This document shows positions 44,550 to 64,000 of a stretch of 64,000 nucleotides of DNA, in pieces. A program made the translations under genes and the position numbers. The stretch covers positions 18,147-82,146 of the forward strand of contig CAWDFQ010000011.1 of the NCBI GenBank assembly GCA_963801625.1, given 5' to 3'. The notes beneath the pieces are model-generated. The model saw only the letters and a program-made list of their open reading frames with translations. It was not told where the DNA came from and searched no databases. The stretch is from an uncultured delta proteobacterium. Its GTDB lineage: Bacteria; Myxococcota_A; UBA9160; PR03. Numbering within the stretch: the stretch's first letter is position 1; each line of letters opens with the position of its first letter.

Positions 44550-44578
44550 GCGGCGCCTCCGTGCTGCTGCGCTTCACT

Positions 44579-44886: not shown

Positions 44887-44891
44887 GCAAC

Positions 44892-45734: not shown

Positions 45735-45824
45735 GGAGGCTCTCCTTGGCGGGCTGCGAAGCTACCCATAGCCTGTCGCGGAACCGGTAGCATGCGCCGA
45801 TACGATACGGAGAGTGGAGGGTGC

Positions 45825-46478: not shown

Positions 46479-46501
46479 TCCGCCAACCACTGTTTCCCAT
46501 C

Positions 46502-46517
46502 TGGCACGCGCGCTGCA
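46502..46517 (+). promoter_or_regulatory. sigma54 -24/-12 promoter of the hydrogenase operon
   Basis: TGGCACGCGCGCTGCA (GG-N10-GC), 50 nt before the ATG. Confidence 0.75.
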
Positions 46518-46566
46518 AAGATTGCTTCACGACTTGCACGCTTCGGTGGGACGCGGAAGGTGGGAC

Positions 46567-47745
46567 ATGAGTGACGTTTCCTGGGGCGGCGTGACACAGC
46601 CTTCGGCGGGAGACCGCGAGGCGCCGCCCGCACACTGGTTGCCGCGCGCGCAACTACAACGTCTGCTCGATGCGCTGCTCGCTCGCGGCTACCGCGTGCT
46701 CGGTCCCGTGGTACGCGACGCGGCGCTGCACTTCGACGAGCTGAAGTCGATCGACGGAGCTGCCGGTCGGCTGGCGCGACGAGCAGGGACCGGGCCGCTA
46801 CCGGCTCGCGCAGACCGACGGCCGCACGTGTTCGGCGTCGTGAATGGACCGGGCGGCATCAAGCGCCACGTCTTCGCGCCGCGTGAGCCGCTGCTCCAGA
46901 TCGAGATGGACGGCCCCGGCCAGGGCTTCCGCGCGCGAGCGGATCTCCCCGAGCCGCCGCGCAGCCGCGCTGCTCGGCGTGCGCGGCTGCGACCTCGCCG
47001 GCCTCGCGGTGCAGGACCGCATCTTCCTGCACGACCGCTTTCCCGATCCGCACTACGCCGCGCGCCGCGCGGGATTGCTGCTGGTCGCGGTCGGCTGCAC
47101 GCGCGCGGTCGACACCTGCTTCTGCGCGTCGATGGGACACCGGACCCGGCGCCGACGCGGCCGACTACGACGTCGCGCTGACCGAAGCTGGACGGACGGC
47201 TTCGTCGCGCGCACCGGCAGCGACGCGGGGCGCGATCTGCTGGCCGCGCTCGCCCTCGGGCGCGCGGCGCGACGCCGTGCTCGGCCGCGAGCGCGATGCC
47301 TACGCAGCCTGCGCCGCCGGATGCAGCGCAGCGCTCCCGCGCGAAGCGCTGCGCGACCTGCTCTACGCGAACCTCTACCACCCGCGCTTCGACGCAGTCG
47401 CGGCGCGCTGCCTCTCGTGCGCCAACTGCACGATGGTGTGCCCCACCTGCTTCTGTCACGACGTGCGCGACGAGCCGTCGCTCGACGGCGCCGTCGAGTG
47501 TCCGCGTGCGCGACTGGGACTCGTGCTTCAACCCCGAGCACGCCCAGGTGCACGGCTCGAACTTCCGGCCGCACGTCCGCGAGCGCTACCGCCAGTGGCT
47601 GGTCCACAAGCTCGCGAGCTGGGTCGACCAGTTCGGCGCCTCGGGCTGCGTCGGCTGCGGCCGCTGCATCAGCTGGTGTCCAGTCGGCATCGACCTGACC
47701 GAGGAGGTGGCGGCGATCGCGGCGACGCCGGGAGCGATGTCGTGA
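46567..47745 (+). CDS. hydB: Group 3b hydrogenase Fe-S subunit beta (multiple frameshifts)
   Basis: [49 protein letters not shown]. Confidence 0.85.
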
Positions 47746-48600
47746 CCGCGCGCGCCGTGCAGGCGCCGCCGATCGCGATGCTCCCGGAGCCGGCGGTGAT
47801 CGTCGACGAAGCGCTCCTTCGGGCCGCGAGATCCACGCCTACCGTCTGCGCCTGCTCGATCCGACCGCGCGCCCGCGCTTCGACTTCCTGCCGGGCCAGT
47901 TCAACATGGTCTACGCGCCGGGCGTCGGCGAAGTGGCGATCTCGATCTCGTCGGACCCGGACGAGGAAGACCTCGAGCACACGATCCGCATCGTCGGCCG
48001 CACGACGCGGGTGATCGACGGCCTCGAGGCCGGGCGACGTGGTCGGGCTGCGCGGTCCCTACGGCAACGGTTGGCCGCTGCGCGAGGCGCGCTTCAAGGA
48101 CCTGCTGGTCGTGACCGGCGGACTCGGCTGCGCGCCGGTGACGGGCGCGATCGACTACGTGTTCCGGCGCCGCGCGAGCTACGGACACGTCACCATCCTG
48201 CACGGCGTGAAGAAGGCCGCCGACCTCGTGCACCACTCGCGCTTCGAGGCCTGGCGGCGCGAGCCCAACACCACCGTGCTACTCACCGCCGACCAGCCCG
48301 ACCGCGCCTGGCGCGACCGCAGCGGCGTCGTGACGGAGCTCTTCGAGGAGGTGGAGATCGACGCCCGGCCGCACCGTCGTCCTGATGTGCGGACCCGAGG
48401 TGATGATGCGCTACGCGATCCGCATCCTGCGCGCGCGCGGCGTCCCCGACGATCGGATCTTCCTGTCGCTCGAGCGCAACATGAAGTGCGCGGTGGGGCT
48501 CTGCGGACACTGCCAGCTCGGACCCGAGTTCGTCTGCAAGGACGGCCCGATCTTTCCGCTCGCGCAGGTCGAGCGCTTCTTCGGAGTGCGCGGGCTGTGA
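47742..48600 (+). CDS. hydG: Group 3b hydrogenase FAD/NAD(P)-binding subunit gamma (frameshifts)
   Basis: [46 protein letters not shown]. Confidence 0.85.
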
Positions 48601-49390
48601 CGGCCAGAAGCCGAAGCTCGCCGTCTTCAAGTTCGCCTCGTGCGACGGCTGCCAGCTCCAGCTGCTGAACCTCGAGGACGAGCTGCTTGCGCTGGCCGAG
48701 CGCGTCGAGATCGCGCATTTCCTGGAGGCGTCGAGCCGCGTCGAGCGACGGACCCTGGGACGTGGCGCTCGTCGAGGGCAGCGTCACGACGGCGCACGAC
48801 GCCGAGCGCATCCGCGAGATCCGCGAGCGAGCCGAAGTTCCTGGTCACGATCGGCGCCTGTGCGACCAGCGGCGGCATCCAGGCGCTGCGCAACGTTGCG
48901 GACGTCGAGGCTGGAAGCGGCAGCGTCTACCCGCACCCGGAGTGGATCCGAGACGCTCGCCACCTCGACGCCGATCTCCGAGCACGTGCACGTCGACGCC
49001 GAGATCCAGGGCTGCCCGGTGGACAAGCGAGCCAGGTGCTGCGCGTGCTGGTGCGCCTGCTGCTCGGCGCGCACCCCGGACCTGCCGGTCGCGAGCGTGT
49101 GCATCGAGTGCAAGCGGCGCGGCGACGACCTGCGTGCTGGTCGTCGCGCGGCGATTCCCTGCCTGGGCCCGGTGACGCGAGCCGGCTGCGGCGCGATCTG
49201 CCCGAGCCCTGGGACGCGATTGCTACGGCTGCTTCGGGCCCGCGGCGGACGCGAATCCGGCGTCGCTGGTGAGACACTTCGAGGCCGTCGGGCCTGTCGC
49301 GCGGCGATGCGCTCCGGCGCCTGCGCCACATCAACGGCTGGCGCCGCGAGTTCCGCGACGCTCGCCGAGGCTCTGGAGAGCGAGGCGTGA
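48597..49390 (+). CDS. hydD: Group 3b hydrogenase small subunit delta (frameshifts)
   Basis: KFASCDGCQ, VEGSVTT, GACATSGG, GCP, VCIECK, CLGPVTRAGCGAICP, CYGCFG. Confidence 0.85.
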
Positions 49391-50707
49391 CTGAGACGCC
49401 GCACGCATCGACGTCGGGGCGCTCGCGCGCGTCGAAGGCGAAGGCGCTCTGCACCTGCGCGTCGGAGAGCGACCGCGTCGTCGACCTGCGCCTCGAGATC
49501 TACGAACCGCCGCGCTTCTTCGAGGCCTTCGTGCGCGGCCGCCGCGCCGAGCGAGCTGCCCGACCTGCTGTCGCGCATCTGCGGCATCTGTCCGGTGGCG
49601 TATCAGATGAGCGCGGTGCACGCGATCGAGGCGGCCTGGGGCGTCGAGCTGCACCCGCAGGTGCGCGCGCTCCGGCGGCTCTACTACGCCGGCGAGTGGA
49701 TCGAGAGCCACCTGCTCCACATGATCTTCCTCGACGCGCCGGACTTCCTGCGCCTCGACGACGCGCATCGAGATCGCGCGCCTGCACCGTCACCGAAGTC
49801 GAGCGTGCGCTGCGGCTGCGCAAACTCGGCAACCGCATCCTGATCCTGCTCGGCGGCCGTTCGGTGAACCCCGTCGGCGTGAAGATCGGCGGCTTCCACC
49901 GCATTCCGACGCGGCTCGGAACTCGCAGAACTGGGCGACGAACTGCGGCGCGCGCGCGGCGAAGCCGAGGCGCTGCTGCGCTGGTTCGCCACGCTGCCGG
50001 TGCCGTGCGCGCCCGCAGGACATCGAGCTGGTCGCGCTGCGGCATCCGAGCGAGTACCCGATGAATGAGGGGCGCATCGTCTCCTCGAAGGGCGTCGACG
50101 CGGCCGTCGCCGGAATGGGAGGCGACCTTCGAGGAAGTCCAGGTACCGCACTCGACGGCACTGCACGCACGGCTGCGTCGCGACGGCGGTTCGTATCTCG
50201 TCGGGCCGCTCGCGCGCGTGACGCTGAACTCCGACCGCCTCTCTCACAGCGCGACGGCGGCGCGCGCGGCGCTCGCGCATCGCTTTGCCACGCCCGACCC
50301 CGCGTCGTCGGTGTTCGCGCGCGGCATCGAAGTGCTGCAGGCGATCGACGAGGCGATTGCCGCGATCGAGCGCTTCGAGCCGTTCCCCGCGCAACCCGAG
50401 CCGGCGCCCCGCGCGGGCATCGGACACGGCGCGACCGAAGCGCCGCGCGGGCTGCTCTACATCGCGGTGGAGACCGATGCGGCAGGCGATCGTGCGCGAC
50501 CTCCGCATCGTGCCGCCCACCTCGCAGAACCAGGCGCAGATCGAGGCCGATCTGCGCGCGCTGGCGCCGGCGATCCTCGCGCTTCCCGAAGACGAGGCGC
50601 GCCGCGCCTGCGAGGCGGCGATCCGCGACTACGACCCCTGCATCTCGTGCGCGACGCATTTCCTCACCCTCACGATCGAAAGGAGCGAAGCATGCGCGTC
50701 CACGTGA
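49387..50707 (+). CDS. hydA: Group 3b NiFe hydrogenase large subunit alpha (frameshifts)
   Basis: ARVEGEG, EPPRFFE, L1 RICGICP, EAPRG, PPTSQN, L2 DPCISCATH plus short cleavable tail. Confidence 0.88.
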
Positions 50708-51156
50708 TCGGCGTCGGCAGCGCCTTCGGCGACGACGCGGCCGGCCTCGCCGTGGCCGAGCTGCTGGGGCGGCGCGCGCTGCCCGAGCAGATCACGGTTG
50801 TGCGCTGCGAGCGACCGATGCCCGATCTGCTCGACGCGCTCGACGAAGTCGAGGGCATCGTGCTCATCGACGCGACCCGAAGCGGGGCCCCGATCGGCAG
50901 CGTGCGTCACCTGCGCGCCGGCGAAGTCACGCGCGCGAAGGCCACGTCGTCGCACGGCTTCGGCGTGGCGAGCGCGCTGCTGCTGGCGCAGACGCTGGGG
51001 TGTCGCGCCGCTCGCGTGGAGTGGATCGGAATCGAGGCGGGTCCCCGTCGCTGGGGCGATCCACTCAGCGCGGCGGTCGAAGGCGCGCTCCCCGAGGCGG
51101 CCGCGCTCGCACTCAGGCTCGCCCGTGAAATCGCGGGCTTGGACGCAAGGAGGTGA
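50692..51156 (+). CDS. Hydrogenase maturation endopeptidase
   Basis: [22 protein letters not shown]. Confidence 0.85.
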   Translation: MRVHVIGVGSAFGDDAAGLAVAELLGRRALPEQITVVRCERPMPDLLDALDEVEGIVLIDATRSGAPIGSVRHLRAGEVTRAKATSSHGFGVASALLLAQTLGCRAARVEWIGIEAGPRRWGDPLSAAVEGALPEAAALALRLAREIAGLDARR

Positions 51157-51260
51157 TGCGATGCGGGCGGCGAGGCCCTACCGCCCGCCGCTGACTCTCG
51201 CGGAGCGATACGCCGCGCGCCTCCCTGGAGAATCGCGTGGCGTTTCCCTATCGATTCGGG

Positions 51261-52280
51261 ATGGCTGAGCCCACGCTGCATTTCGCTTCGACGCGCGATG
51301 GATGGCGCCTCGCGTTGCACCATCGTCCGCCCTCCCGAGGCGATCACGGCACGCCGGTGATCCTCTGTCACGGGATGGGCTCGAACCGCTTCAACATGGA
51401 CGGCCCGGGCCGCGCGAGTCTGGCCCGCCACTTGAGCGATTCGGGTTACGACGTCTGGGTGCTCGAGCTGCGGGGTGCTGGGAAGTCGCGCCGCCGGCTG
51501 CGCGTTCCGCCGGTGCCCTGGTCGTGGACCTTCGAGGACTACGTCCAGCACGACGTCCCGGCCGCGCTGCATCTGGTGCGCGAATCGACCGGTCACTCCC
51601 GCCTGCTCTGGGTCGGTCACTCGCTCGGCGGCATGATCGCCTACGCCAGTCTCATGACACCCGCGGCGGAGTCGTTCGCGGGCGTCGTCACGCTCGGCTC
51701 GCCCGGCATGACCGATGTCGGCCACGAGGCGATCGACCGCTGGATCCGACTGCGGCGCCTGCTGAAGTTCGCGCCCGCGCGGATTCCGTCGCGGCTCTTC
51801 GCGTGGACGGCGGCGCCCTTCGCGGGCCTGATCGCCTCCAGCTTCAGCAACGTGGTGCGCGACTGGTTCTGGCATCCGGACAACATCGATCTCTCGACCG
51901 TCCGCTTCATGATGCGCAATGGCGTCGAAGATCTGCCGCGCGCGTTGATGGTGGAGTTCGCGCGCTGGTACGAGGCGAAGCGGATGAGTGACCGCTACGC
52001 GCTGTTTGCCTTCGGAGACCACCTGGAGCGCATCAAGGTGCCGATCCTGGTGATCGCCGGCTCACGCGATCGCCTGACGCCGCCCACCGATCTCGAGCGC
52101 CTGGTCGAACGCCTCGGCTCGAGCGACAAGACCTACTTCTTGGCTGGGCACGCGTCCGGACTGGCACACGCCTACAGCCACGTCGACCTGGTGCTCGGAC
52201 GCCATGCGCCGGACGAGATCTACCCGGTCGTGACGGAGTGGCTCGACTCCCACAAACCAGTGGCGGCGCGCGCCCGCTGA
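51261..52280 (+). CDS. Alpha/beta hydrolase (Ser nucleophile)
   Basis: CHGMGSN, ELRGAG, GHSLGG, D and HVDL catalytic-like residues. Confidence 0.85.
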   Translation: MAEPTLHFASTRDGWRLALHHRPPSRGDHGTPVILCHGMGSNRFNMDGPGRASLARHLSDSGYDVWVLELRGAGKSRRRLRVPPVPWSWTFEDYVQHDVPAALHLVRESTGHSRLLWVGHSLGGMIAYASLMTPAAESFAGVVTLGSPGMTDVGHEAIDRWIRLRRLLKFAPARIPSRLFAWTAAPFAGLIASSFSNVVRDWFWHPDNIDLSTVRFMMRNGVEDLPRALMVEFARWYEAKRMSDRYALFAFGDHLERIKVPILVIAGSRDRLTPPTDLERLVERLGSSDKTYFLAGHASGLAHAYSHVDLVLGRHAPDEIYPVVTEWLDSHKPVAARAR

Positions 52281-52286
52281 CGGGCT

Positions 52287-53063
52287 TCAGCCTTCGGGAG
52301 CGGCGCTCATCAGTTTCGCCAGCGCGTCGGGCTGGAGCAGGACCATCCGCTGGCGCCGGCGGGTGACCAGACCTTCCTTGCCGAGTTCACCGAGCGCCTG
52401 ATTGACGGTCTGGCGCGTGGCGCCCACCAGCGTTGCGAGTTCTGCCTGTGTGATCGGAATGTCGATCACGACGAGATCGCCGTCGCGTCGCCCGAAACTC
52501 CGCGCGAGCTCGGAGAGCATGCGCGCGACGCGGATCCGCACCGAGTGGAACACGAGGTCCTCGACGCGCGCCTCGACGCGCTTCAAGCGTTCGCCCATCT
52601 GCTGCGCGATCGCGAGGACGAGTGAGGGCCGCGACGCCATCAGACGCTGAAACGGTTCGCGCGCAATCCTCCAAACCAGGGACGCCTGAACGGCCTGCGC
52701 GAAGCTCTCGCGCGGATAATCGCCGAAGGCCAGCAGCTCGCCGAATACTTCCCCCGGCGCCACGTAGCCGAAGCTCGTCTCGCAACCCGCCTCCGACACG
52801 CGATAGACGCGTGCCAGTCCCGTCTCGACCAGGTACACCGACTCCGGATTCGCAGTCGGTGCGAAGATCAGCTCGCCGACGGCGTAACGCTTCGAGAAGC
52901 CAGAGCGCTGCAGTAACTGGATGGCCGTGGATCCCAGTTCGCGCAGCCAATCGATGCGCCGCAGCGAAGAAATCTCGACGTGATCCACTCCCACGCCCGC
53001 CTCGGCGTGCGCCTGCGCTCCATTCGTCCGGACCCGCTCCTGAATCATCGGTTGGCTCTGCAA
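52287..53063 (-). CDS. Crp/Fnr family transcriptional regulator
   Basis: cNMP-like domain (GEVFGE), HTH ITQAELATLVGATRQTVN; AGGAGG RBS before TTG start. Confidence 0.92.
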   Translation of the reverse strand: MQSQPMIQERVRTNGAQAHAEAGVGVDHVEISSLRRIDWLRELGSTAIQLLQRSGFSKRYAVGELIFAPTANPESVYLVETGLARVYRVSEAGCETSFGYVAPGEVFGELLAFGDYPRESFAQAVQASLVWRIAREPFQRLMASRPSLVLAIAQQMGERLKRVEARVEDLVFHSVRIRVARMLSELARSFGRRDGDLVVIDIPITQAELATLVGATRQTVNQALGELGKEGLVTRRRQRMVLLQPDALAKLMSAAPEG

Positions 53064-53113
53064 AGTCGACCTCCTGGTCTTGCGGTATCACATCGGCGCG
53101 CACGCCATCGGTA

Positions 53114-53129
53114 AGCAACTGCCATGCCG
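53114..53129 (-). promoter_or_regulatory. sigma54 -24/-12 promoter of the Crp/Fnr gene
   Basis: CGGCATGGCAGTTGCT on the minus strand. Confidence 0.75.
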
Positions 53130-53246
53130 CGCTGCGGATGCAGCAGAACGCGCGAGCTGAGACGGATTGACTCAGTCGGGCGAACAGCGCGGGGCGTCGC
53201 GTCTCCCCCACTGACCCGTGGCTGCCGCTCTCCGGCTGCGAGCGAC

Positions 53247-53262
53247 CGGCACGTCGCGTGCA
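53247..53262 (+). promoter_or_regulatory. sigma54 -24/-12 promoter of CBS gene 1
   Basis: CGGCACGTCGCGTGCA, followed by GGAGG RBS. Confidence 0.7.
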
Positions 53263-53289
53263 CCGTTCCCACTCGAGGGAGGACCCTTG

Positions 53290-53721
53290 ATGCCGCTCGC
53301 TTCGATTCCCGTCTCGCGGATCATGCGCACGGAGTTCGCGTCGTTGCGCGAGACGGATCGTCTGGACCTGGCCGATCAGATCATGAAGCTCGGCCGCGTG
53401 CGGCATCTGCCGGTGCTCGACCCGGATGGCCGAATCATCGGCATCGTGTCGAATCGCGACTTGCTCTCGGCGTCGCTGACCAACGTGCTCGATTTCGAGC
53501 GCGAGCAACGCCAGGGCTTCCTGCGCTCGGTGGACGTCGCGGAGGTGATGACGCGCGAAGTCGAGACGATCGCTCCCGATGCGCCGCTCGCCGCTGCTGC
53601 CAGCCGGCTCGTCGCGCATCGCATCGGATGTCTGCCGATCGTGGGCGACGACCGCGTGATGGTCGGACTCGTCACCGAGACTGATCTGCTGGCCGCTGCC
53701 TTCCTGGGGACTGCCGAGTAG
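53290..53721 (+). CDS. Tandem CBS-domain protein
   Basis: VRHLPV...GIVSNRDL; IGCLPIV...GLVTETDLL. Confidence 0.92.
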   Translation: MPLASIPVSRIMRTEFASLRETDRLDLADQIMKLGRVRHLPVLDPDGRIIGIVSNRDLLSASLTNVLDFEREQRQGFLRSVDVAEVMTREVETIAPDAPLAAAASRLVAHRIGCLPIVGDDRVMVGLVTETDLLAAAFLGTAE

Positions 53722-53917
53722 GCGCGAGCACGACGTCGGATTCGTTCGCGTCGGCTTCGCCCTCCACCTCGGGCGCGTGATCGTCGTCCAGGAAATGACG
53801 CGCGGCCGGGCCGTCCCAATCGTCGAAGTCGCCGCGCGAAACCGCGCGCACGACGAGCGCGAGCAGGCCCCCGGCGAACAGCAGGCTCACGGGGATCGTG
53901 ATCCAGAGAAAACTCAT
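53672..53917 (-). CDS. ccoS: cbb3 oxidase assembly protein CcoS
   Basis: MSFLWITIPVSL, GDFDD, position after ccoI. Confidence 0.8.
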   Translation of the reverse strand: MSFLWITIPVSLLFAGGLLALVVRAVSRGDFDDWDGPAARHFLDDDHAPEVEGEADANESDVVLAPTRQSPGRQRPADQSR

Positions 53918-56131
53918 CGCGGCGGCCTCCAAGCCAGCAGCCGGACCGCGTTTCCGGTCACCACCAGCGACGACAGGCTCATCGCGATCGCCGCCGGCAG
54001 CGGATCGAGCGCGCCGAACGCGGCAAGAGGTACCGCGACGACGTTGTAGAGCACGGCGAACGCGAGGTTCTCACGCACGCGGCGCAGCGTCGCGCGTGCC
54101 AGGCCGACGGCGTCGGCGAGCGCGCCGAGGCGCGGCGCGCGCACCACCACGTCGGCGGCGTGGATCGCGACGTCGGCGCCACGTCCCATCGCGAAACCGA
54201 CGTCGGCGGCGGCCAGCGCGGCGGCGTCGTTGATGCCGTCGCCGGCCATCAGCACAGCGTGGCCGGCGGCGCGGACGCGCTGCACATGCTCGACCTTCTG
54301 CTCGGGACGCATGCCGGCGTAGCGCTCCTCGATCCCGGCCCGCGAGGCCGCCATCGCGACGGCGTCGGCGTGGTCGCCCGACACGAGCGTCGACCGAGAG
54401 TCCCAACTTGCGCAGACGCGCGACGGCGTCCCGCGCGTCCGGCCGCGGCGGATCGCCGAGCGAGACGACGCCGAGGACCCGCTCGGCCTCGGCGACGAAA
54501 GCCAACGAGGCACCCTGCGCGCCGAGCTGGCGCGCGGCTTCGTCCAGATCGCGATCGATCGCGACGCCGCACTCCGCAAGCAGCTCTCGCGATCCGACGA
54601 CTCCGCGGCCCGCCGCGTCGACGGCCACGACGCCGCGACCCGGCAGCGCGCTCCGCCCGCCGCGCGCGACCGGTGCGGCGAGCCCGCGCCGCTCGAGCTC
54701 GCGCGCGAAGCGCTTCGGCGACCGGATGCGTCGACGCGCCCTCGATCGCGACGGCGCTGCGCGAGGACGTCGGCGTCGTCGAAGCCGCCGGCGGCGAGCG
54801 ACGCGCTCGACGGCGAGGCGTCCCGTCGAGAGCGTGCCGGTCTTGTCGAGCAGCACGGCGGTCACAGCGGCGCAGCGCTCGATCGCCTCGCCGCTCTTCA
54901 CGAGCACGCCGAAGCGAGCGCCGCGCGTCCGATCGCGGCCGTCACCGCCGCTGGCGTCGCGAGGCCCAGCGCGCACGGGCAGGCGACGATCAGCACCGCC
55001 GCGCGGTCATCGCGACCTCGAGCGGCGTCGCTCCCGCGCAGCGGCCAGCCGAGCGCCGTCAGCGCGGTCACAGCGAGCACCGCCGGGGCGAAGACGGCTG
55101 CGACGCGGTCGGCCATGCTGCTGGATCTGCGGTCGTTCGAGCTGCGCGCGCTCGAGCAGCGACGCGAGCCGCGCGAGCGTTCCGTGGCCTGCGCCGCGCA
55201 TGCACGTCGACTTCGACTTCCGCCAGCACGTTGCGGCTGCCGCCCGTCACGCAGTCGCCGCAGCTACGCGCGACCGGAGCGACTCGCCGGTGAGCAGCGA
55301 CTCGTCCACCTCGGTGGCGCCGCAGCGCGATCGCGCCGTCGGCCGGAAACGCCTGGCCGGGCGCGACCACCACGCGATCGCCGGGCTCGAGCGCGCTCGC
55401 CGGGAACTTCCTCGACGACGTCGCCGCGGCGGCGCAGGGCCGTCGCGGGCGCCAGCGCCGCGAGCTGCTCGACGGCGCGCGAGGCGCGCGCGCGCGCGCC
55501 GCGCTCGAGCGTGCGGCCGAGCAGGATCAGGAACACGATCATCGCCGCCGAGTCGAGGAAGACGTGCGTGACGCCTTCCAGCGTGCCCGCCAGGCTCGCG
55601 GCGAAGGCGGTGCCGATCCCGAGCGCAACGGGCAGGTCGATGGTGATCTCGCCGCGGCGCAGCCCCGCCCAGGCGCCGCGCCAGAACGGCGCCGCACACC
55701 AGAGTCACCGCCGGCAGCGAGAGCGCGAGCCCGAGCCAGCGCAGCGCCGTTGCGGTCGCCGGGATCGATGCCCTGGTAGGTGCCGAGGTAGAGGCCCGAC
55801 CGAGATCATCATCACGTTGGCGGCGAGGAAGGCGGCGACGAGCAGGCGCACGAGCGCGCTGCGCGCCTCGCGCGTCGCCGGCCGCTCGAGCGCGTCGAGG
55901 TCGTAGGGCGTCGCCTCGTAGCCGAGCGCGCGCACGCGCGCGACGAGCGCTGCGACGTCCACGCGCGCCGGGTCGAAGCGCACGCAGCGCGCGGTGCGTG
56001 GTGTGGTTGACGCTGCGCCTCGCCGACGCCCGGCGACGCGCGCAGGCTCGCGCTCGACGCGCGCGACGCAGCCGGCGCAGCGCAGTCCGTCGAGGAAGAG
56101 GCCGGTCTCGGCGGGCAGCGGCTGCGCTCAT
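53914..56131 (-). CDS. ccoI: Cu-transporting P1B ATPase CcoI/FixI (heavily frameshifted)
   Basis: HMA CAGC, DESLLTGES, ACPCALGLATP, DKTGT, GDGINDA, MSLSSLVV. Confidence 0.85.
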
Positions 56132-56619
56132 GGCATCCACGCGCGCGAGCGGCGCTCGACCCGTGCGCCGTCGCGCTCGGCGCGCACCATGAGCGACCAG
56201 CGCCCCGTGACGCGGCAGCGCGACGTCGACCGGTACCCGTCGCCCGACGGATACGCGAACTCGGCGTCGTAGCCGCCCTCGGCGGGACGCTCGCGCCGCA
56301 CCGACAGGCGATCGGCGTCGAGCGGCCGCGCCGTCGGCGCCGAGCAGACGCGGCGATCGCGCGCGCGCCATCCGCGTGGCAGCTGCGCGTGTTCAGCGTC
56401 GAGCGTCCAGCCTGAGCGCGCGCGCTCGCTTCGGCAGCGCGACGTCGTCGGCGAAGTGCGAGGCCCGCCTGGAACGAATCGGCGACCACCGCGTCGGATC
56501 GGGATTGCGCGCAGCGATCCGGTAGAAGCCGAGCGAGGTGCCGATCATCGCTGCCAGCATGCGCCACCAGCGCGATCGGCCAGGGCTCGAGCGACTCCGG
56601 CGACTAGCCTAGTCGGCAT
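56128..56619 (-). CDS. ccoH: FixH/CcoH-like protein (frameshifted; boundaries approximate)
   Basis: PWPIAL..MIGTSLGFY TM, GRWSL motif; position between ccoG and ccoI. Confidence 0.55.
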
Positions 56620-57966
56620 GCTCGTGCTCCTCGTGATGCGTCGCGTCGGTCGCGCTGCGCGGGCGCCACGAAGCGTCGAGTCGCGCGCGACGCTGCCTGC
56701 CGGGCGCTCGGTGTCTCGAGCACGAAGCGGATCGGCGTGCCGTCCTCGTCCTCAGCCGTCGCGATCGGGCGACGCGAGCACGAACACGCTCGCGCTCACG
56801 TCGCCGGTCGCTGGGATCGGCAGCGGATTCACGCCGGCGACGAGCTCGAAGCTCGCCGGCGCCTCGATGCCGATCCGGTAGACGCGCTCGCTGCGGTCGC
56901 GATTCTGGACGTGCAGCGTGTAGGCGTTGCCGATGCGGCCGTCGGCGCATGCGCTGGTACAGCGACGTGCGGTTGCGCTCGACCTCGAGCGCAAGCGGTG
57001 CGCGAGCGCACGAGCGCGGCGCGAAGCCGAGCACGCGACTGCGAGCGAGCAGCACGCCGTAGATCGACCACGCGCGGCCGCAGCAGACGCGTGCGCCGGC
57101 CCTCGAGCGAGGCGAGCGAGCGGTACCCGATCAGGTCCGGCGGCCGTCCGATGCGCTCCATCACGCCGTCGCAGGCGTCGATGCACTGGGTGCAGCCGAT
57201 GCACTCGAGCTGGAGGCCCTTGCGGATGTCGATGTCGGTCGGGCACACGGCGACGCAGAGCCCGCAGTCGACGCAGTCGCCGCCCTTGCGTTCGCCGCGC
57301 TCTTGCCGCGCGGCTCGCCGCGCTCCGGGTCGTAGGCGACGACGAGCGAGTCGCCGTCGAGGAGCACGCTCTGGAAGCGCGCGTACGGGCACAGGTACTT
57401 GCAGAAGGTCTGGCGGACCAGCGCGAAGTCGAGCGTAGCAGAGCGCCGTCGCCGGCGACCCAGAAGCCCATCGATGCGCCCGCGAGATCGCCGTCGCGCA
57501 GCGCACCGATCAGCTCGTAAGGCGAACGGAAGTAGCCGACCAGGTGGAGCCCGACGATCGCCGAGACTGCGATCCACGCAACCTGCGTCGCGACGCGGCG
57601 CCACAGCGCGACATGACGCGGCGGGCCCGTCCGCGTCCAGCCCTGGATCCGGCGCGCGATCGCCGCGTAGACGTCGGTAAACACCGTCTGGGGACACGCC
57701 CAGCCGCACCAGAGCCGTCCCGCGAGCGCAGTGAAGAAGAAGAGCGCGAGGGTGAGGCCCGCGAGGATCAGCCAGAGGAAAAACAGCTCCTGCGGGAAGA
57801 TCACCAGCCCGAACACGTGGAACTTGCGATGGGGGATGTCGAGCAGGACGAGCGGCTCGCCACGAACGCGAACCCAGGGAACCACGAAGAGAATCGCGAT
57901 CAGGATCGTGTTGGCGGCCGAGCGCAGCCGGCGGAAGCGACCTTCGACGGGGCGTGCAGAAAGCAC
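56609..57966 (-). CDS. ccoG: cbb3 accessory protein CcoG/FixG (frameshifted; 3' end uncertain)
   Basis: GRFRRLR, GRLWCGWACPQTVF, CKYLCPYARFQ, CVDCGLCVAVCP, CIGCTQCIDAC. Confidence 0.88.
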
Positions 57967-57985
57967 GGAGTGGTTCCCCGCCCGC

Positions 57986-58593
57986 TCAGGAGCCGGGCGC
58001 TGGCGCGACCGGCGGAACCGCGACCGGCGTCGAACCCGCGGGCGGGACGTAGTCCGGCGCACCGAGCCCCGGCTGCTGCGACTTCGGCAGCGTCTCGAGA
58101 TACGCGAGCGCCTTCCAGATCTTCTCGCGAGCCGAGCTGCGATTCCCACGCGGGCATTCCCCCCGGCCGTCCCTTCGTGACGGTCAAGAATAGATCGGCG
58201 TCGGCGTGGCCGTACTTCCAGTACGGGTCGACGAGGCTCGGGCCGACCAGCCCCGACGCATCGGGCTTGTGGCAGGCTGCGCAGATCGTCGTGAAGATCT
58301 GTTGGCCGTCGGCGATCGCCGCTGCGTTGCCGCGATACGGGTTGGTGGTCGGAATTGGGGGCGCCGTCGCCTGGATGAGCGCCTTGGTCTGCGCGACCTG
58401 CTCGGCGTACTGCTTCGTCCTGTGACCAGCCGCTGCGCGTGTAGTACGGGATGTAGACCAACGCGAACACGACGGTGCCGAAGAACGTCCACCACCACCA
58501 CGACGGGATCGGGTTGTCTTCCTCGCCGATTCCGTCGCGGAGGGCTTCGTCGCTCCGCGGCAGTTCGGCGATCTCGGCGCAATCTGCGCTCAT
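57986..58593 (-). CDS. ccoP: cbb3 oxidase subunit III CcoP, mono-heme (frameshifts)
   Basis: DGIGEEDNPIPSWW, single CAACH, GPSL, GMPAW. Confidence 0.85.
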
Positions 58594-58731
58594 TCGTCGT
58601 CGTCCTCCAGCATGCGCCGCGCGGGTTCCTCGAGGCGCTCCTTGCGCTTTCCGGCAGAACGCCCACACCGCGATGCCGCAATCACGATCGCGAGGATCGC
58701 GAGTCGGGCGAGCTTGTAGAGACCGATCCAT
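58590..58731 (-). CDS. ccoQ: cbb3 oxidase subunit CcoQ (frameshifts)
   Basis: Short TM ...GIAVWAF then RLEEPARRMLEDD; position between ccoO and ccoP. Confidence 0.65.
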
Positions 58732-58737
58732 TCCTCG

Positions 58738-59457
58738 CTAGTCATCGGCCCGGCCCTCGCTCCCGCACCCGCCGCCGCCTCCCGCCACCGGAGGTCGGTG
58801 CCGAGCCGCTGGAGGTACGCGATCAGCGCGATCGTCTCGCTGCGCGCTTCGCCGTCGCTGAAAGCGCCTGCCCGTCCTTGCGCAACGCGGCGGCCACGCG
58901 CTCCGCCTGGGCGCGGGCGTCCTCGCGCGGCGTTCTGGATCTCGCGTCGTCGTAGCGGTGACCGAGGTCGCGCAGCACTTCGAGCTTGCGCTGGTCAGCG
59001 AGAGATCGAGCGGCGACTCGATCAGGAAGGCGTAGGGCGGCATGATCGAACGCGGCTCGATCTCGCGCGGATTGCGGAGATGGATCCAGTGCCACGAGTC
59101 GGGGTACTTGCCGCCGACGCGCGAGAGATCCGGACCTGTCCGCCGCGATCCGTAGAGGAAGGGCCGGTCGTAGATGCCCTCTCCCGGCATCGTGAACGGT
59201 CCGTAGCGATCGGTCTCGGCCTTGAACGGGCGGATCATCTGGCTGTGGCAGTTGTTGCAGCCTTCGCGGATGTAGAGATCGCGTCCTTCCAGTTCGAGCG
59301 CCGAGTAGGGCTTGACGCCGTCGATCGGGTCGATCGTGCCCTGCAGGAAGTACGGAGGCACCAGCTCGACGAGTCCGCCGACCATGACCGTGAGCAGCGT
59401 CAGCACGGTGAACGTGACGCCCTTCGCTTCGAGGGGTCGATGCCAGTCCCACGCCAT
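58738..59457 (-). CDS. ccoO: cbb3 oxidase subunit II CcoO (3' frameshifts)
   Basis: GRDLYIREGCNNCHSQMIRP, GSRRTGPDL, SIMPPY, ALIAYLQRLG. Confidence 0.93.
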   Translation of the reverse strand: MAWDWHRPLEAKGVTFTVLTLLTVMVGGLVELVPPYFLQGTIDPIDGVKPYSALELEGRDLYIREGCNNCHSQMIRPFKAETDRYGPFTMPGEGIYDRPFLYGSRRTGPDLSRVGGKYPDSWHWIHLRNPREIEPRSIMPPYAFLIESPLDLSLTSASSKCCATSVTATTTRDPERRARTPAPRRSAWPPRCARTGRRFQRRRSAQRDDRADRVPPAARHRPPVAGGGGGCGSEGRADD

Positions 59458-59461
59458 GGCG

Positions 59462-60907
59462 CTAGCGCCCCCCCGCGACGGGCACGGCGCCGGTCGGCAG
59501 ACCCGCGGGTACGCCAGCGCTGCCCTGCCGGATCGTCATTGCGACGTTGTAGAACATCAGCAACGCGCCGGAGAGGAACAGCGCTCCGCCGGCGGCGCGA
59601 ATCCAGTCGTAGATGTGAATCGCCGCAACGCTCTCGATGAACGTGTAGGCAAGACTCCCATCCGGGTTCACGGCGCGCCACATCAGTCCCTGGGTGATGC
59701 CCGAGACCCACATCGACGTCACGTAGGTCACCAGTCCGAGCGTTGCGATCCAGAAATGCAGTTCCGCGAGACGCTGGCTGTACAGCTGCGTGTGCCAGAG
59801 CCGCGGGATCATGTAGTAGAGCGCCCCGAAACAGGTGAGTGCCACCCAGCCGAGCGCGCCCGAGTGCACGTGACCGATCGTCCAGTTCGTGAAGTGGGAA
59901 AGCGAGTTCACCGTCTTCACGGCCATCATCGGCCCTTCGAAGGTGCTCATGCCGTAGAAGGTGATGCCGACTGCGAACAGTTTGAGGATCGGATCGGTGC
60001 GCACCTTGTCCCAGGCGCCGCGTAGGGTGAGCAGCCCGTTCAGCATGCCGCCCCACGAAGGTAGGATCAGCATCACGGAGAATCCGGTGGCGAGCGTCTG
60101 CGTCCAGTCGGGCAGTGGCGAGTAGATCAGGTGATGCGGTCCCGCCCACATATAGAGGAAGATCAGCGACCAGAAGTGCACGATCGAGAGCCGATGCGAG
60201 AAGATCGGGCGCCCGGCCTGCTTGGGCAGGAAGTAGTACATCATGCCCAGGATCGGCGTAGTCAGCAGGAAGCCGACGGCGTTGTGGCCGTACCACCATT
60301 GGATGTTGGCGTCGTACAGCCCTGCGTAGATCGAGTACGACTTCATCCACGACACCGGCCGCTCGAGACTATTGAAGATGTGCAGCAGCCCGATGCTGAG
60401 GATCGTCGCGATCCAGAACCAGATCGCGACGTACATGCCCTTTTCCTTGCGGCGCGCGATGGTGCCGAAGAAGTTGACCGCGTAGACCACCCAGACGACC
60501 GCGATCGCGATGTCGATCGGCCACTCGAGTTCGGCGTACTCCTTCGAGGTGGTCTTGCCGAGCAGCAAGCTCACCGCCGCGGCGACGATGACGGCGTTCC
60601 AACCCCAGAGATTGATCCGTGACAAGGTGTCGGAGAACATGCGCACGCGACACAGGCGTTGGACGCCGTAGTAGCTACTGGCGAACACCGTGCCGAGCGT
60701 GAAGCCGAAGATGACCGCGTTGGTATGCAGCGGGCGGATGCGCCCGAAGCTCAGATAAGGCGGAAGATTGAACGCGGGCGCGGCGAGTTGGAGCGCGGCG
60801 AACAGACCGACGATCATCCCGATCACGCCCCACACGAGCGCGGAAATCGCGAAGCCGCGAACGACGTTCATGTCGTACTCGCTTCGCGTTACAGCAGGGC
60901 TCGGCAC
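59462..60907 (-). CDS. ccoN: cbb3 oxidase catalytic subunit I CcoN
   Basis: [45 protein letters not shown]; AGGAGG RBS before GTG. Confidence 0.97.
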
Positions 60908-60944
60908 AGTACCCCCTCCTAGATTGGACGTCCTCACGCCCGGC

Positions 60945-60960
60945 CGCAGCCTCGATGCCA
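60945..60960 (-). promoter_or_regulatory. sigma54 -24/-12 promoter of the cco operon
   Basis: TGGCATCGAGGCTGCG on the minus strand, 38 nt before the ccoN start. Confidence 0.7.
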
Positions 60961-60999
60961 GCGAACCGGGGTGCCCGAATCGTTGACGTTTGCGTGGAT

Positions 61000-61117
61000 C
61001 GTGTCGGCTCGCCACAGGTCACGGCGTGCTGTGCCCTCGCGCCTCATCCTCTGCCGATTCCACCGGATGCGACAGAGGACCGCACGTCGACCGGAACTGC
61101 TGAGCACGCAGGCCACA
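61000..61117. promoter_or_regulatory. Array of four putative enhancer (UAS) sites
   Basis: 17-mers CGTGTC-N5-GCCACA (61000), TGTGCC-N5-GCCTCA (61030), TGCGAC-N5-ACCGCA (61068), TGAGCA-N5-GCCACA (61101). Confidence 0.5.
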
Positions 61118-61377
61118 GCCGGCCCCTCACACGCTGCCCCGGCGCAAACCTTACTCCACTCGAGAACGCGGAACGGCGCTTGCCGCGCGGCCGCGCGGGA
61201 GGTGAATCTCGACGACGCCGGCAGCATCCCGATCGGCGCTGCCTACGAGGCGCCCCACACGCATCGCCGCGATGTACTCGAGCAACGCGCCGCGGTGAAC
61301 GTCACGGTCGAATTCTGAGGCTGAACTGAGACCGAGTTCCGCGGCTCTCCAGCGGGAGTCACGCGCGCGCCGGGGCT

Positions 61378-62664
61378 ATGTTCGGCGCCATGAAGGAAGA
61401 GCTCGAGGAACGGCTTGCCTTCCTCGTCTTGACGGAGACGGACAGGGCCCTGCTTGCAGGGCTCGGTCCCCTCCTCGAGCGACACGCCGAGCGTTTCGTC
61501 TCTTCGTTCTACCGCCATCTGTTGTCTTTTGAAGGCACGCGGCACCTGCTCAGCGATCCAGCCGTGAAGGACCGGGTGCTCGCCAAGCAGCGCGAGTATC
61601 TGCTCTCGCTCGCTTCGCCGGCTCTCGACGACCGCTACATCGCGGACCGCATTCGGATTGGCGAAGTGCACCAGCGCGTCGGGCTCGACCCGGGCTGGTA
61701 TCTCGGAGCCTATTCGCTCTTTTTCTCCCTGCTGGCTCCCGTGATCAGCGAGGCGTTTCGCGGCGATCCCGAGCGCGTGTCCCAGACGCTCGCGGCGCTC
61801 GTCAAGATCCTGATGCTCGATGCGCAACTCGCGGTCGAGGCCTACAACGAGCGCCGCGACCGCGTCCTCGAACACCTGAACCGCGAACTGTCGGAAGCGA
61901 GCCGCAGTCTCGCGCGCGAGCACAGCCTCACCGAGCACGAGCTTCGCGAGACCGAATTGCGAGCACGAGCCGCCGAGAGCCTCGCCTCGGTTGCGACACT
62001 CGTGGCGGGCCTGGCGCACGAGATCGGCACGCCGATGGGCGTGATTCGCGGTCACGCGGAGGCGCTGGAGTCAGCCGTCCAGGGCGAGAAGGCGCAATGG
62101 CGCGCCCGCACGATCCGAGACCAGATCGATCGCATCTCGGCCATCATCCAATCGCTGCTGAACATCGCGCGGCCCCGGAAGGCGGTGCCCGTCGCCGTCG
62201 ATCTCGTGGAGGTCGTCGACACGGCGATCGCCTTCCTGTCGGAGAAGCTCGGGCGCCGCGAAGTGACGGTGGAACGCCAGTATTCGGAGACGCCCACTGT
62301 AAGAGGCGATTCCGACAAGCTGCAGCAGCTCTTCTTGAATCTCTTTCTCAACGCGATCGACGCGATGCCAGAGGGAGGGCGGCTGCTCATCGGCATCCGG
62401 ATCAGCGCGGCGCGCGAGATCGAGATCACCGTCTCCGACACCGGTACCGGAATCGCCGCCGAAGACCTCCCGCACGTCTTCACGCCGTTCTTCACGACCA
62501 AGCCGGCGGGACACGGCAGCGGACTGGGACTCGTGGTTGCGCAGGGCATCGTCGTCGATCACGGCGGCCAGCTCGACGTGACGAGCGACGTCGATTGCGG
62601 GACGACCTTCACGATCCGGCTTCCGCTCGGCTCTCAGGCGGGGGCAGCGCTCGACGGTGCGTAG
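61378..62664 (+). CDS. Globin-coupled sensor histidine kinase
   Basis: Sensor globin domain (SFYRHL Tyr B10, RIGEVHQRVGL His F8), AHEIGTP H-box, NAIDA, DTGTGI, FFTTK, GSGLGL; no TM. Confidence 0.92.
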   Translation: MFGAMKEELEERLAFLVLTETDRALLAGLGPLLERHAERFVSSFYRHLLSFEGTRHLLSDPAVKDRVLAKQREYLLSLASPALDDRYIADRIRIGEVHQRVGLDPGWYLGAYSLFFSLLAPVISEAFRGDPERVSQTLAALVKILMLDAQLAVEAYNERRDRVLEHLNRELSEASRSLAREHSLTEHELRETELRARAAESLASVATLVAGLAHEIGTPMGVIRGHAEALESAVQGEKAQWRARTIRDQIDRISAIIQSLLNIARPRKAVPVAVDLVEVVDTAIAFLSEKLGRREVTVERQYSETPTVRGDSDKLQQLFLNLFLNAIDAMPEGGRLLIGIRISAAREIEITVSDTGTGIAAEDLPHVFTPFFTTKPAGHGSGLGLVVAQGIVVDHGGQLDVTSDVDCGTTFTIRLPLGSQAGAALDGA

Positions 62665-63071
62665 GCGAGCCGCAACAGGTCGCTCTCCACCACGAGACCG
62701 ACCATCAGCAGGCGATCTCCCTCGGCTTCGACCACCGGCAGGCAGCCCAGGTGTTTCTCCACCATCCGGCGCGCGACTTCGATGAGCGGCTCGCTGGGTG
62801 TCGCAGTGAGCGGTGTACGGTCCATCACCTCCACGACGGGGAGGCGCGCGAGCAGGTCCTTCACGAGTTCGAGAGGATGCTCGAGAACGGTCTCGAGCGC
62901 GGTCCGCAGCAGACTTTGATGCCAGAGCACGCCGACCAGCGCGTCGTCGGAGATCACCGGTACCTGGCGGATGCCGGCGACACGCATCAGCAACTCGGCT
63001 TCGTAGAGGCTCAGCTGCGGTGACGCGGAAATCCAGTGTCGTCGCATCACCGTGGCGATCGGCCGATCCAA
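62634..63071 (-). CDS. Tandem CBS-domain protein
   Basis: IRQVPV...GVL; LGCLPVV...GLVVESDLL; GAAAGG RBS before TTG at 63071 (start uncertain). Confidence 0.85.
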   Translation of the reverse strand: MDRPIATVMRRHWISASPQLSLYEAELLMRVAGIRQVPVISDDALVGVLWHQSLLRTALETVLEHPLELVKDLLARLPVVEVMDRTPLTATPSEPLIEVARRMVEKHLGCLPVVEAEGDRLLMVGLVVESDLLRLAYAPSSAAPA

Positions 63072-63119
63072 TCGGGCCTTTCGAATGGCTCTCGCTATCT
63101 CGGGCATGCCAGGAGGTGA

Positions 63120-63135
63120 TGCAGGCCCCATGCCA
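63120..63135 (-). promoter_or_regulatory. sigma54 -24/-12 promoter of CBS gene 2
   Basis: TGGCATGGGGCCTGCA on the minus strand. Confidence 0.7.
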
Positions 63136-63264
63136 AGAAGATTGCGGGCGCAAGGCTGCGCATTACGAGACCTCTTGACACCCACTGAGACTCGGCGCCA
63201 CAGTCGGCCGACCCAGATGTGCCCTGCGGCGCCGCTCCAGTGGTCGCCATGAACCTGGGACCGC

Positions 63265-63280
63265 TGGCACGCAACGTGCG
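63265..63280 (+). promoter_or_regulatory. sigma54 -24/-12 promoter of the response regulator
   Basis: TGGCACGCAACGTGCG. Confidence 0.65.
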
Positions 63281-63295
63281 AAAAGACTGGGAGTC

Positions 63296-64000
63296 ATGGC
63301 CAGTCCGCGCTCGATCCTCGTAGTCGACGACGATTCCGCAATGCGGGAGATGGTGGTGTCGTTGCTCGAAGACCAGGGGATTCACGCGCTCGCTGCCGCC
63401 AGCACCGACGAGGCTCTCGAACGGCTCAGCGAATTCGACTGCGACGTCGTGCTCTCCGACATCCGCATGCCCGGCAAGACCGGCATCGACCTGGTCGGGC
63501 AGATCCGCGGGCTGCGGCCCGACGACGCCGGTCGTGCTGATGACCGCCTTCGGCAGCATCGACTCGGCCGTCGAGGCGATGCACGCCGGCGCCTTCGACT
63601 ACGTGACCAAGCCCTTCAAGCGCGACGCCCTGCTCGTCACGCTGGACCGCGCCTTCGAGCACCGTGCGCTCGAGGAGGAGAACCGGAGGCTGCGACGCGC
63701 CGTCGATCAGACCTCGTCGTTCGGCGATCTGATCGGCCACAGCCCCGCGATGCGCGAGATCTTCGCGCTGGTGCGCAAGATCGCCGACGGTCACTCGAGC
63801 GTGCTGATCACCGGCGAGAGCGGCACCGGCAAGGAGGTCGTCGCGCGCACGATCCATTTCTCGGGCGCACGCGCGGCGCGCTCGTTCGTGCCGATCAACT
63901 GCACGGCGATCCCGGAAGGACTGCTCGAGAGCGAACTCTTCGGCCACGTGCGCGGCGCGTTCACCGGAGCGCACGTCACGAAGCGCGGTCTCTTCGAGCA
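63296..64000 (+). CDS. NtrC-family sigma54-dependent response regulator (partial; frameshift near 63525)
   Basis: LVVDDD, SDIRMPG, TAFG, KPF receiver motifs; GESGTGKE Walker A; ESELFGH; GAFTGA. Confidence 0.95.
   Translation, partial: MASPRSILVVDDDSAMREMVVSLLEDQGIHALAAASTDEALERLSEFDCDVVLSDIRMPGKTGIDLVGQIRGLRPDDAGRADDRLRQHRLGRRGDARRRLRLRDQALQARRPARHAGPRLRAPCARGGEPEAATRRRSDLVVRRSDRPQPRDARDLRAGAQDRRRSLERADHRRERHRQGGRRAHDPFLGRTRGALVRADQLHGDPGRTARERTLRPRARRVHRSARHEARSLRA

Follow-up and report, generated by a model that had tools for sequence, protein, structure and literature searches.

A predicted globin-kinase and sigma54-activator oxygen circuit in an uncultured lineage of Myxococcota

Introduction

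Globin-coupled histidine kinases have been well studied as proteins, and the only output network found for them in the literature is the four-component Nmp relay of Myxococcus xanthus (M. xanthus). The present work describes a candidate network in an uncultured lineage of Myxococcota, which is encoded in the last part of a stretch of 64,000 nucleotides (nt), here called the window, that corresponds to C11:18147-82146 of genome G000. The block features the gene of a globin-coupled kinase and the gene of an NtrC-type activator, set among predicted sigma54-type promoters. No paper on such a direct pair of globin kinase and sigma54 activator was found in a partial search of the literature.

In NmpRSTU of M. 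xanthus the protoglobin kinase NmpU acts through the hybrid kinase NmpS, an inverter, with NmpT as a sink, on the NtrC-like regulator NmpR (PMC6211767). NmpR binds GCGCA-N5-TGCGC and activates sigma54 promoters, and its targets include a CBS-led operon containing nmpR, nmpUTS, a universal stress protein (USP) gene, a P-type ATPase gene with cbb3 genes, hemN with a hemerythrin gene, and pilR (PMC11841059). The expression of mxan_4236, the first gene of the CBS-led operon, goes up under hypoxia (PMC11841059). An initial annotation of the window stated that no regulon was defined for globin-coupled kinases; this is outdated, as the NmpRSTU sigma54 regulon has been defined experimentally (PMC11841059). 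AfGcHK from Anaeromyxobacter sp. Fw109-5 has a double-receiver protein as its partner (PMC6211767), and both AfGcHK and NmpU are active in their oxygen-bound form (PMC11841059, PMC6211767). Homologues of Balon are hypoxia-induced in mycobacteria and are located near Hrp1 (PMC10901736). The likeness to NmpRSTU discussed below is drawn from published descriptions and not from M. xanthus sequences, thus orthology to NmpR or NmpU is not implied.

Two other circuits that respond to oxygen through heme kinases are FixLJ-FixK of rhizobia and DosRST of mycobacteria. FixLJ-FixK consists of a heme kinase, a response regulator and a Crp/Fnr-type second tier and ends at the cbb3 oxidase genes. The heme domain of FixL is of the PAS type, FixJ does not belong to the sigma54 activators, and transcription of fixNOQP starts at FixK-dependent sigma70 promoters. 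The heme kinases of DosRST control a hypoxia set with USPs and the CBS-pair protein Hrp1; the sensors are GAF domains, the regulator is of the NarL/LuxR type, and sigma54 is not involved.

Organization of the locus

The reading favored here, and held to be fairly probable, is that the block encodes a self-contained two-component oxygen circuit in which a kinase acts directly on an activator, with a palindromic enhancer and sigma54 promoters. A cytoplasmic heme-globin histidine kinase would pass its phosphate straight to the neighboring NtrC-type activator, which would bind TGWGRC-N5-GYCWCA, with the center of the site about 40-80 bp upstream of the start of a -24/-12 promoter, and the bound activator would open sigma54 RNA polymerase complexes. 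The targets would be the ccoNOGHIS operon, the genes of two CBS-pair proteins (CBS1 and CBS2), a FixK-like Crp/Fnr regulator that could add a second tier of control, and the activator's own operon with two USP genes, which would provide positive feedback. Elsewhere in the genome, the putative targets are a Balon-like aeRF1-type protein, a tandem USP and a fragment of a phosphoenolpyruvate (PEP)-utilizing enzyme.

Genome G000 comprises 4.78 Mb in 15 contigs with 69% GC, and the completeness score of the assembly is 65%. Genes between 45.8 and 64 kb were called with Pfam and NCBIfam on the window and on a cleaner genus-mate, G001. The comparison set consists of the locus from 20 relatives of the same uncultured Myxococcota order, in which orthologs were mapped by tblastn. 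From 45.8 kb the gene order is beta-carbonic anhydrase, hydBGDA with a HycI-type protease, an alpha/beta hydrolase, a Crp/Fnr-family regulator on the minus strand, CBS1, the cco genes on the minus strand, the kinase, CBS2 on the minus strand and the NtrC-type regulator. The two USP genes lie just past the window end, downstream of the activator. The genes that concern the circuit are:

61378-62664, plus strand: globin-coupled histidine kinase (protoglobin, HisKA and HATPase_c), by profile matches
63296-64000, plus strand, continuing to about 64721 outside the window: NtrC-type response regulator (REC, AAA+ with GAFTGA, HTH_8), by profile matches
62634-63107, minus strand: CBS-pair protein 2 (CBS2), by profile matches
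53767-60907, minus strand: ccoN-ccoO-(small open reading frame)-ccoG-ccoH-ccoI-ccoS operon, cbb3 oxidase and maturation genes, by profile matches
53290-53721, plus strand: CBS-pair protein 1 (CBS1), by profile matches
52287-53063, minus strand: Crp/Fnr-family regulator, FixK/Crp-like, by profile matches, without an N-terminal Cys cluster
46567-51156, plus strand: hydB-hydG-hydD-hydA and HycI-type protease, sulfhydrogenase-like, group 3b-type NiFe hydrogenase, by partial Pfam matches with intact G001 orthologs

The kinase and activator pair

The initial annotation had placed a globin-coupled kinase and a GAFTGA-containing activator in this block, and the domain matches bear this out. The kinase scores 124.8 bits for Protoglobin, 46.8 bits for HisKA and 97.1 bits for HATPase_c, and the genome has no second protoglobin gene. 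Residues Y45, H98 and H214 are invariant in 21 kinase sequences and align with solved sensor globins; from the AfGcHK and HemAT literature these are taken here to be the distal Tyr, the proximal His and the phospho-accepting His, respectively. The globin domain matches AfGcHK with 47.6 bits, versus 58.6 bits for a Geobacter sensor globin and 58.4 bits for HemAT. The catalytic core of the kinase is closest to ZraS/AtoS, and the regulator is closest to AtoC/NtrC/ZraR without reaching the NCBIfam equivalog cut-off of any of the three. The GAFTGA motif occurs in the window translation of the activator, and the G001 ortholog features Response_reg, Sigma54_activat and HTH_8 domains in 473 amino acids.

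The two genes share one locus in 20/20 of the fetched loci and lie within about 700 nt of each other in 18 of these. No other kinase core or receiver was detected at E<1e-4 in the 20 loci or in the whole 88-kb contig C11, the remaining genome not having been searched, and neither an NmpT-like double receiver nor an NmpS-like REC-HisKA hybrid was found in the same loci and contig at this threshold. Because of the conserved synteny, and because a palindrome is common to five of the six promoters described below, it is plausible that the kinase and the NtrC-type activator form a pair ringed by its own sigma54 promoters, one of which lies ahead of the activator operon and would allow autoregulation. 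The proposal in the initial annotation of a self-contained, autoregulated oxygen circuit is thus retained for the pair and its promoters; its inclusion of the hydrogenase is not, as no palindrome was found upstream of hydB.

Protoglobin genes occur in 88 of the 151 sampled genomes of the phylum. Forty protoglobin loci, which were hand-picked by favoring frames of about 310-690 amino acids and a spread of families and are therefore not a random sample, were sorted with a scripted layout rule:

24/40 loci: kinase directly adjoining a REC-AAA+ activator
2/40 loci: extra kinase or receiver genes between the kinase and the activator
3/40 loci: extra kinase or receiver genes near, activator more distant (L182 and L198 resemble nmpU-T-S by eye)
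2/40 loci: kinase lacking an activator within 2.5 kb, with neither a further receiver nor a further kinase nearby
9/40 loci: no adjacent kinase core

These layouts bear on an alternative in which a relay of the Nmp type exists with unlinked parts, so that a hybrid kinase elsewhere in the genome, and not the globin kinase, would feed the activator as NmpS does. The alternative is considered quite improbable. It draws on Nmp being the only characterized relative (PMC6211767), and also on the search for REC-HisKA hybrids, which covered contig C11 and the 20 loci and not the whole genome, the assembly being 65% complete. However, the adjacent pair is conserved without an extra kinase or receiver in the 20 loci, direct adjacency was seen in 24 of the 40 hand-picked loci compared with Nmp-like insertions in 2 to 4, and kinases with a core of the AtoS/ZraS type, to which this one belongs, work with regulators of the NtrC family.

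Sigma54-type promoter sites

The sigma54 consensus used for scoring is TGGCAC-N5-TTGCA, which gives 11 positions. The six YGGCAY-N6-TGC elements of the initial annotation, described there as co-oriented with the gene starts and having a GG-N10-GC spacing, were all located. The window contains exactly 6 matches to this motif, the distance from GG to GC is 10 nt in 6/6, and all six sites are intergenic and have the orientation of the following gene, whose start codon is 13-51 nt away. The sites from the motif scan, with the gap from GC to the start codon and the number of consensus positions matched, are:

46502-46516, plus strand: sigma54-type -24/-12 site of hydB (TGGCACGCGCGCTGC); gap 50 nt, 10/11
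53115-53129, minus strand: sigma54-type site of crp/fnr (CGGCATGGCAGTTGC); gap 51 nt, 8/11
53247-53261, plus strand: sigma54-type site of CBS1; gap 28 nt, 9/11
60946-60960, minus strand: sigma54-type site of ccoN; gap 38 nt, 8/11
63121-63135, minus strand: sigma54-type site of CBS2; gap 13 nt, 9/11
63265-63279, plus strand: sigma54-type site of the activator operon; gap 16 nt, 9/11

In scoring against the genome background, as the initial annotation had suggested, 8/11 is a common score that is reached by 3133 genome sites, so that the crp and ccoN sites rest on their context and not on their score. The motif count is also unremarkable alone, since shuffled sequences gave a mean of 3.3 matches and 13/100 shuffles gave at least 6. 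The whole genome has 235 matches in 4.78 Mb. All six sites of the window fall within its last 17.5 kb, where 0.86 would be expected (Poisson P for at least 6 = 2.7e-4), and only one 17.5-kb stretch elsewhere in the genome has at least six.

Conservation upstream of orthologs was read by eye, for the activator, CBS2, CBS1 and crp, from a table of the 20 loci. The activator has a -24/-12 site in 16/20 loci, 14-18 nt ahead of its start codon, and CBS2 has a site in all 12 loci that hold the gene. A site is present in 10/11 loci with a CBS1 ortholog, and a similar site is present on the crp side in 4/4 loci with a crp ortholog. For ccoN a sigma54-type site was found in 14 of the 17 genomes with this gene, and for hydB in only 5 of 15 relatives. 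The intergenic DNA around the promoter sites is otherwise poorly conserved. Position, local clustering and conservation upstream of orthologs make the six sites credible as predicted sigma54 promoters.

The possibility that no sigma54 regulon exists and that the sites arose by chance in intergenic DNA rich in GC is regarded as highly improbable. A window count within the shuffle range and two sites with only 8/11 positions would fit it; on the other hand, the six sites are intergenic, co-oriented, clustered and conserved upstream of orthologs across the order while nearby intergenic DNA diverges.

A gene for the sigma factor was found, with Sigma54_DBD at C6:131103-131580, split across two frames. 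The claim in the initial annotation that ccoN has no TTGAT-N4-ATCAA box holds, as a search of the spacer from ccoN to the kinase gene that allowed up to 2 mismatches found no such FNR/FixK box. A scan of 60850-63350 for the sigma70 consensus gave nothing, which is a weak result, as promoters in this phylum may not fit that consensus. Among RNA runs, none was found to contain the stretch, which speaks neither for nor against expression.

The -12 elements of CBS2 and of the activator are located 13 and 16 nt from the start codons (63107-63135 and 63265-63298), and relatives keep 14-18 nt. The CBS2 and activator messages are thus predicted to be nearly leaderless, without space for a ribosome-binding site. 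Upstream of the kinase gene, the spacer to ccoN is a variable region: its 153 nt at 61142-61294 are replaced by 10 other letters in contigs of runs X1 and X2, and the spacer is about 700 nt longer in G001. This region holds one further element:

61169-61184, plus strand: weak seventh GG-N10-GC site (CGGAACGGCGCTTGCC), directed toward the kinase gene, of uncertain status; G001 and G005 have TGGAAC versions

The candidate enhancer palindrome

A 17-bp palindrome, TGWGRC-N5-GYCWCA, is common to 5 of the 6 promoters and lies 37-81 bp upstream of them. It was derived from word enrichment upstream of the promoters (TGTGRC, GYCACA, ATTGAC), followed by inspection by eye. The copies in the block, for which no strand applies, are:

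53158-53174: candidate enhancer palindrome TGAGACGGATTGACTCA, common to the divergent crp and CBS1 promoters
61000-61046: two candidate enhancer palindromes, 61000-61016 and 61030-61046, 30 bp apart, upstream of the ccoN promoter
63186-63202: candidate enhancer palindrome TGAGACTCGGCGCCACA, common to the CBS2 and activator promoters

The spacing between the palindrome and the activator promoter is kept at 66-76 bp in relatives, and across promoter-upstream regions the preferred distances of the palindrome center are about 47-88 bp from the start of the -24 element. A best palindrome score of at least about 10 was reached in 45/75 promoter-upstream regions, compared with 5.8 expected from shuffles, a contrast that overstates the support because the palindrome was defined from the same related, non-independent sequences that were later scored. 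The ccoN loci, which were not used in the definition of the motif, have the palindrome upstream in 11/17 genomes.

Strong copies number 23 in the 4.78 Mb of the genome, 7 of them beside sigma54-like sites, and 3 of these 7 are in this block. The intergenic strong copies outside the window precede a gene of baeRF family 3 (Balon-like), a tandem-USP gene and a PPDK_N fragment. The Balon-like gene (C1:11952-13172) scores 69 bits with NCBIfam, below the cut-off, and has a distant likeness to ribosome hibernation factors of the Balon type. It is unlinked to the block in G000, its locus likewise took no part in the definition of the motif, and it has the palindrome upstream in 8/13 genomes and a sigma54 site in 10/13. 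In G012, G031 and G036 it shares the contig of the kinase, 4-12 kb from the kinase or activator gene. The tandem-USP gene (C2:327864-329096) and the PPDK_N fragment (C9:3027-3861) each follow a weak sigma54-like site, which is itself preceded by the palindrome at 69-83 bp; both are possible further members of the predicted regulon.

No palindrome was found within 330 bp upstream of hydB, either in the window or in the 5 relatives with a sigma54 site at hydB, and the hydrogenase is therefore not placed in the regulon. Its promoter is predicted to be of the sigma54 type and is probably under another activator. A palindrome-like sequence with a score of 10 occurs at 46582 inside hydB; it is downstream of the promoter in conserved coding sequence, so it was not counted. 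A strong match with a score of 11, TGTGGCGTCTCGCGACA, is located at 29861-29877, just within the start of a gene, with no sigma54-like site near. A second cluster of promoter-type sites at C2:39400-57300 comprises nine YGGCAY-N6-TGC sites in 17.5 kb, mostly ahead of small genes. The palindrome is missing at all nine, with a best score of 8.8, and this cluster is probably another sigma54 regulon. With up to 2 mismatches allowed, the NmpR-type enhancer GCGCA-N5-TGCGC was matched once in 690 nt of upstream DNA; this is a background level, as the contig has 3.4 such matches per kb.

A further alternative accepts the promoters as real and assigns the palindrome to another protein, such as the local Crp/Fnr-type regulator, or lets several of the approximately 27 activators of the genome serve the promoters, the proximity of the kinase being incidental; its probability is judged to be low. 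The sequence TGTG...CACA resembles CRP-type half-sites, ATTGAC is also enriched in these regions, and the number of activator genes adds to the candidates. However, the palindrome is odd-length with an N5 spacer, unlike the even-length layout of CRP/FNR sites. It is also found about 40-80 bp upstream of the -24 element, which is the usual place of an enhancer, it occurs in the activator's own promoter with a spacing conserved in relatives, and it travels with the pair across the order, loci without crp included. The NmpR site has the same odd-length form with an N5 spacer (PMC11841059).

Response to oxygen

Under the favored reading of a direct kinase-to-activator circuit, scarcity of oxygen is the most likely trigger of the regulon, a sign assigned with modest confidence and judged by the cargo: the high-affinity oxidase, the USPs, the CBS-pair proteins and the Balon-like factor argue for activity at low oxygen. 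Without an inverter, activation at low oxygen implies a kinase that would be active when deoxygenated, or a phosphatase that would be active when oxygenated. The same circuit could have the opposite sign, with the kinase active in its oxygen-bound form and the regulon serving as an oxygen-arrival programme of a mostly anaerobic organism, in which the high-affinity oxidase would be joined by protective proteins. This version is possible, on the unlikely side. [quoted passage not shown] Against this, genes for USPs, CBS-pair proteins and Balon-like factors are hypoxia-induced where they have been studied (PMC11841059, PMC10901736), and the globin is nearer to the Geobacter sensor globin and HemAT than to AfGcHK, so polarity need not transfer.

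Several observations weigh against the proposed circuit. Most promoters have one clear palindrome, and NtrC-type activators usually use two or more enhancer sites. The palindrome was defined on the regions in which it was scored, as noted above, the crp and ccoN sites have scores that are common in the genome, and the genome has approximately 27 activator genes. The ccoN gene is without a sigma54-like site in 3 of the 17 genomes (G019, G024 and G033), each of which has a kinase or protoglobin match. The polarity of AfGcHK and NmpU would, in an inverter-free direct pair, turn the regulon on in air (PMC11841059, PMC6211767). Finally, the window copy of the activator gene is frameshifted: compared with three relatives, it has a 1-nt insertion near 63524.

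Frameshifts in the window copies

The frameshift in the activator is one of many in the block. The hyd and ccoO/G/H/I genes feature at least 22 frame hops (46567-50064 and 53767-59457), and the ccoN, kinase, crp and hydrolase genes are intact beside these frame-hopping neighbors. Short-read contigs of runs X1-X3, and of X4 in part, from two studies, have 1-nt indels relative to the window (12 at listed places and 113 further), and several of these coincide with frame hops, e.g., at 49463, 49549 and 50007. The rpoN gene and a translation GTPase gene are also split in G000. The frameshifted copies of the activator, hydrogenase and cco genes appear to result from consensus errors of the assembly, given the short-read indels at the listed hop places, the split rpoN and GTPase genes and the 65% completeness, and decay of the regulon in this strain was set aside on the same grounds. 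The frameshifts may still be real and strain-specific, or reflect decay, as the short-read contigs differ from the window by about 2% elsewhere and may come from a sister strain, and as only 2.3% of the 3-kb windows of the genome code as poorly as the hop-dense patches.

Other features of the block

The ccoN protein passes TIGR00780 (675.5 versus a cut-off of 583.15), ccoG passes TIGR02745 (407.3 versus 316.7), and the other parts of the operon match FixO, FixH, an E1-E2 ATPase with HMA, and FixS. CcoP was not seen as a separate full-length protein, and only a FixP_N stretch occurs, at the N-terminus of CcoG. The FNR-type N-terminal cysteine cluster is absent from the Crp/Fnr protein, which has a single Cys located within a nucleotide-binding-like domain. 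An Rfam scan of 44000-64000 gave nothing at the gathering score. At 51156-51237 of the window, between the HycI-type protease and hydrolase genes, G001 has about 5.7 kb of extra sequence (L033 8100-13900). This segment contains the maturation gene HypF and is missing at this place in the window genome.

Comparison with known systems

Judged by its sequence, the locus is a simpler variant of an Nmp-type oxygen circuit, with the same logic and much shared cargo, without a relay that could be found, and with another enhancer. Like NmpRSTU, which comes from the same phylum, it has a protoglobin kinase on top, an NtrC-like regulator at the bottom, sigma54 promoters and an odd-length enhancer palindrome with an N5 spacer, and its predicted regulon, here defined by promoter and palindrome only, includes cbb3, CBS and USP genes and the regulator's own operon. 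Unlike NmpRSTU, it lacks the NmpS/NmpT relay in the locus and contig C11, and the enhancer is TGWGRC-N5-GYCWCA and not GCGCA-N5-TGCGC. The FixK-like regulator and the Balon-like gene are additional predicted targets here, and no link to hemN, hemerythrin or pilR, as in the Nmp regulon, was found. The kinase shares with AfGcHK the Protoglobin, HisKA and HATPase domains as well as the Tyr and the proximal His at matching positions; the neighboring partner is a sigma54 activator instead, and the globin is only distantly similar.

The initial annotation had compared the locus to DosR and FixLJ. The cargo fits this analogy, as it comprises cbb3 and maturation genes, two CBS-pair proteins, USPs, a FixK-like regulator and a Balon-like factor. 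As in FixLJ-FixK, a heme-type kinase, a regulator, a Crp/Fnr-type gene and cbb3 genes occur together; however, ccoN has a sigma54 site here and no FNR/FixK box. The resemblance to DosRST is one of cargo only (USPs, CBS-pair protein and Balon homologue), and the sensor and regulator types are unrelated.

Implications

The locus appears to be a minimal version of an output network for a globin-coupled kinase, limited to one kinase and one activator, with a single candidate enhancer sequence and few predicted targets. It places the cbb3 operon behind a predicted sigma54 promoter, rather than FNR/FixK boxes, across an order of soil bacteria, and it connects, by prediction, oxygen sensing outside the actinobacteria with USPs, CBS proteins and a ribosome factor of the Balon-like kind. 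Among the hand-picked loci no layout was seen more often than the direct pair, thus the Nmp system that has been studied may be the exception. A wider proposal, which is tentative and on the doubtful side, is that the direct pair of globin kinase and sigma54 activator with CBS, USP, cbb3 and Balon-like cargo is a common and possibly ancestral hypoxic-dormancy circuit of the Myxococcota, convergent in content with the mycobacterial DosR regulon, that NmpRSTU was derived from it by insertion of a relay, and that the kinases of direct pairs, which lack an inverter, are active when deoxygenated, the reverse of AfGcHK and NmpU. If this is true, the presence or absence of the relay would predict the sign of the heme sensor.

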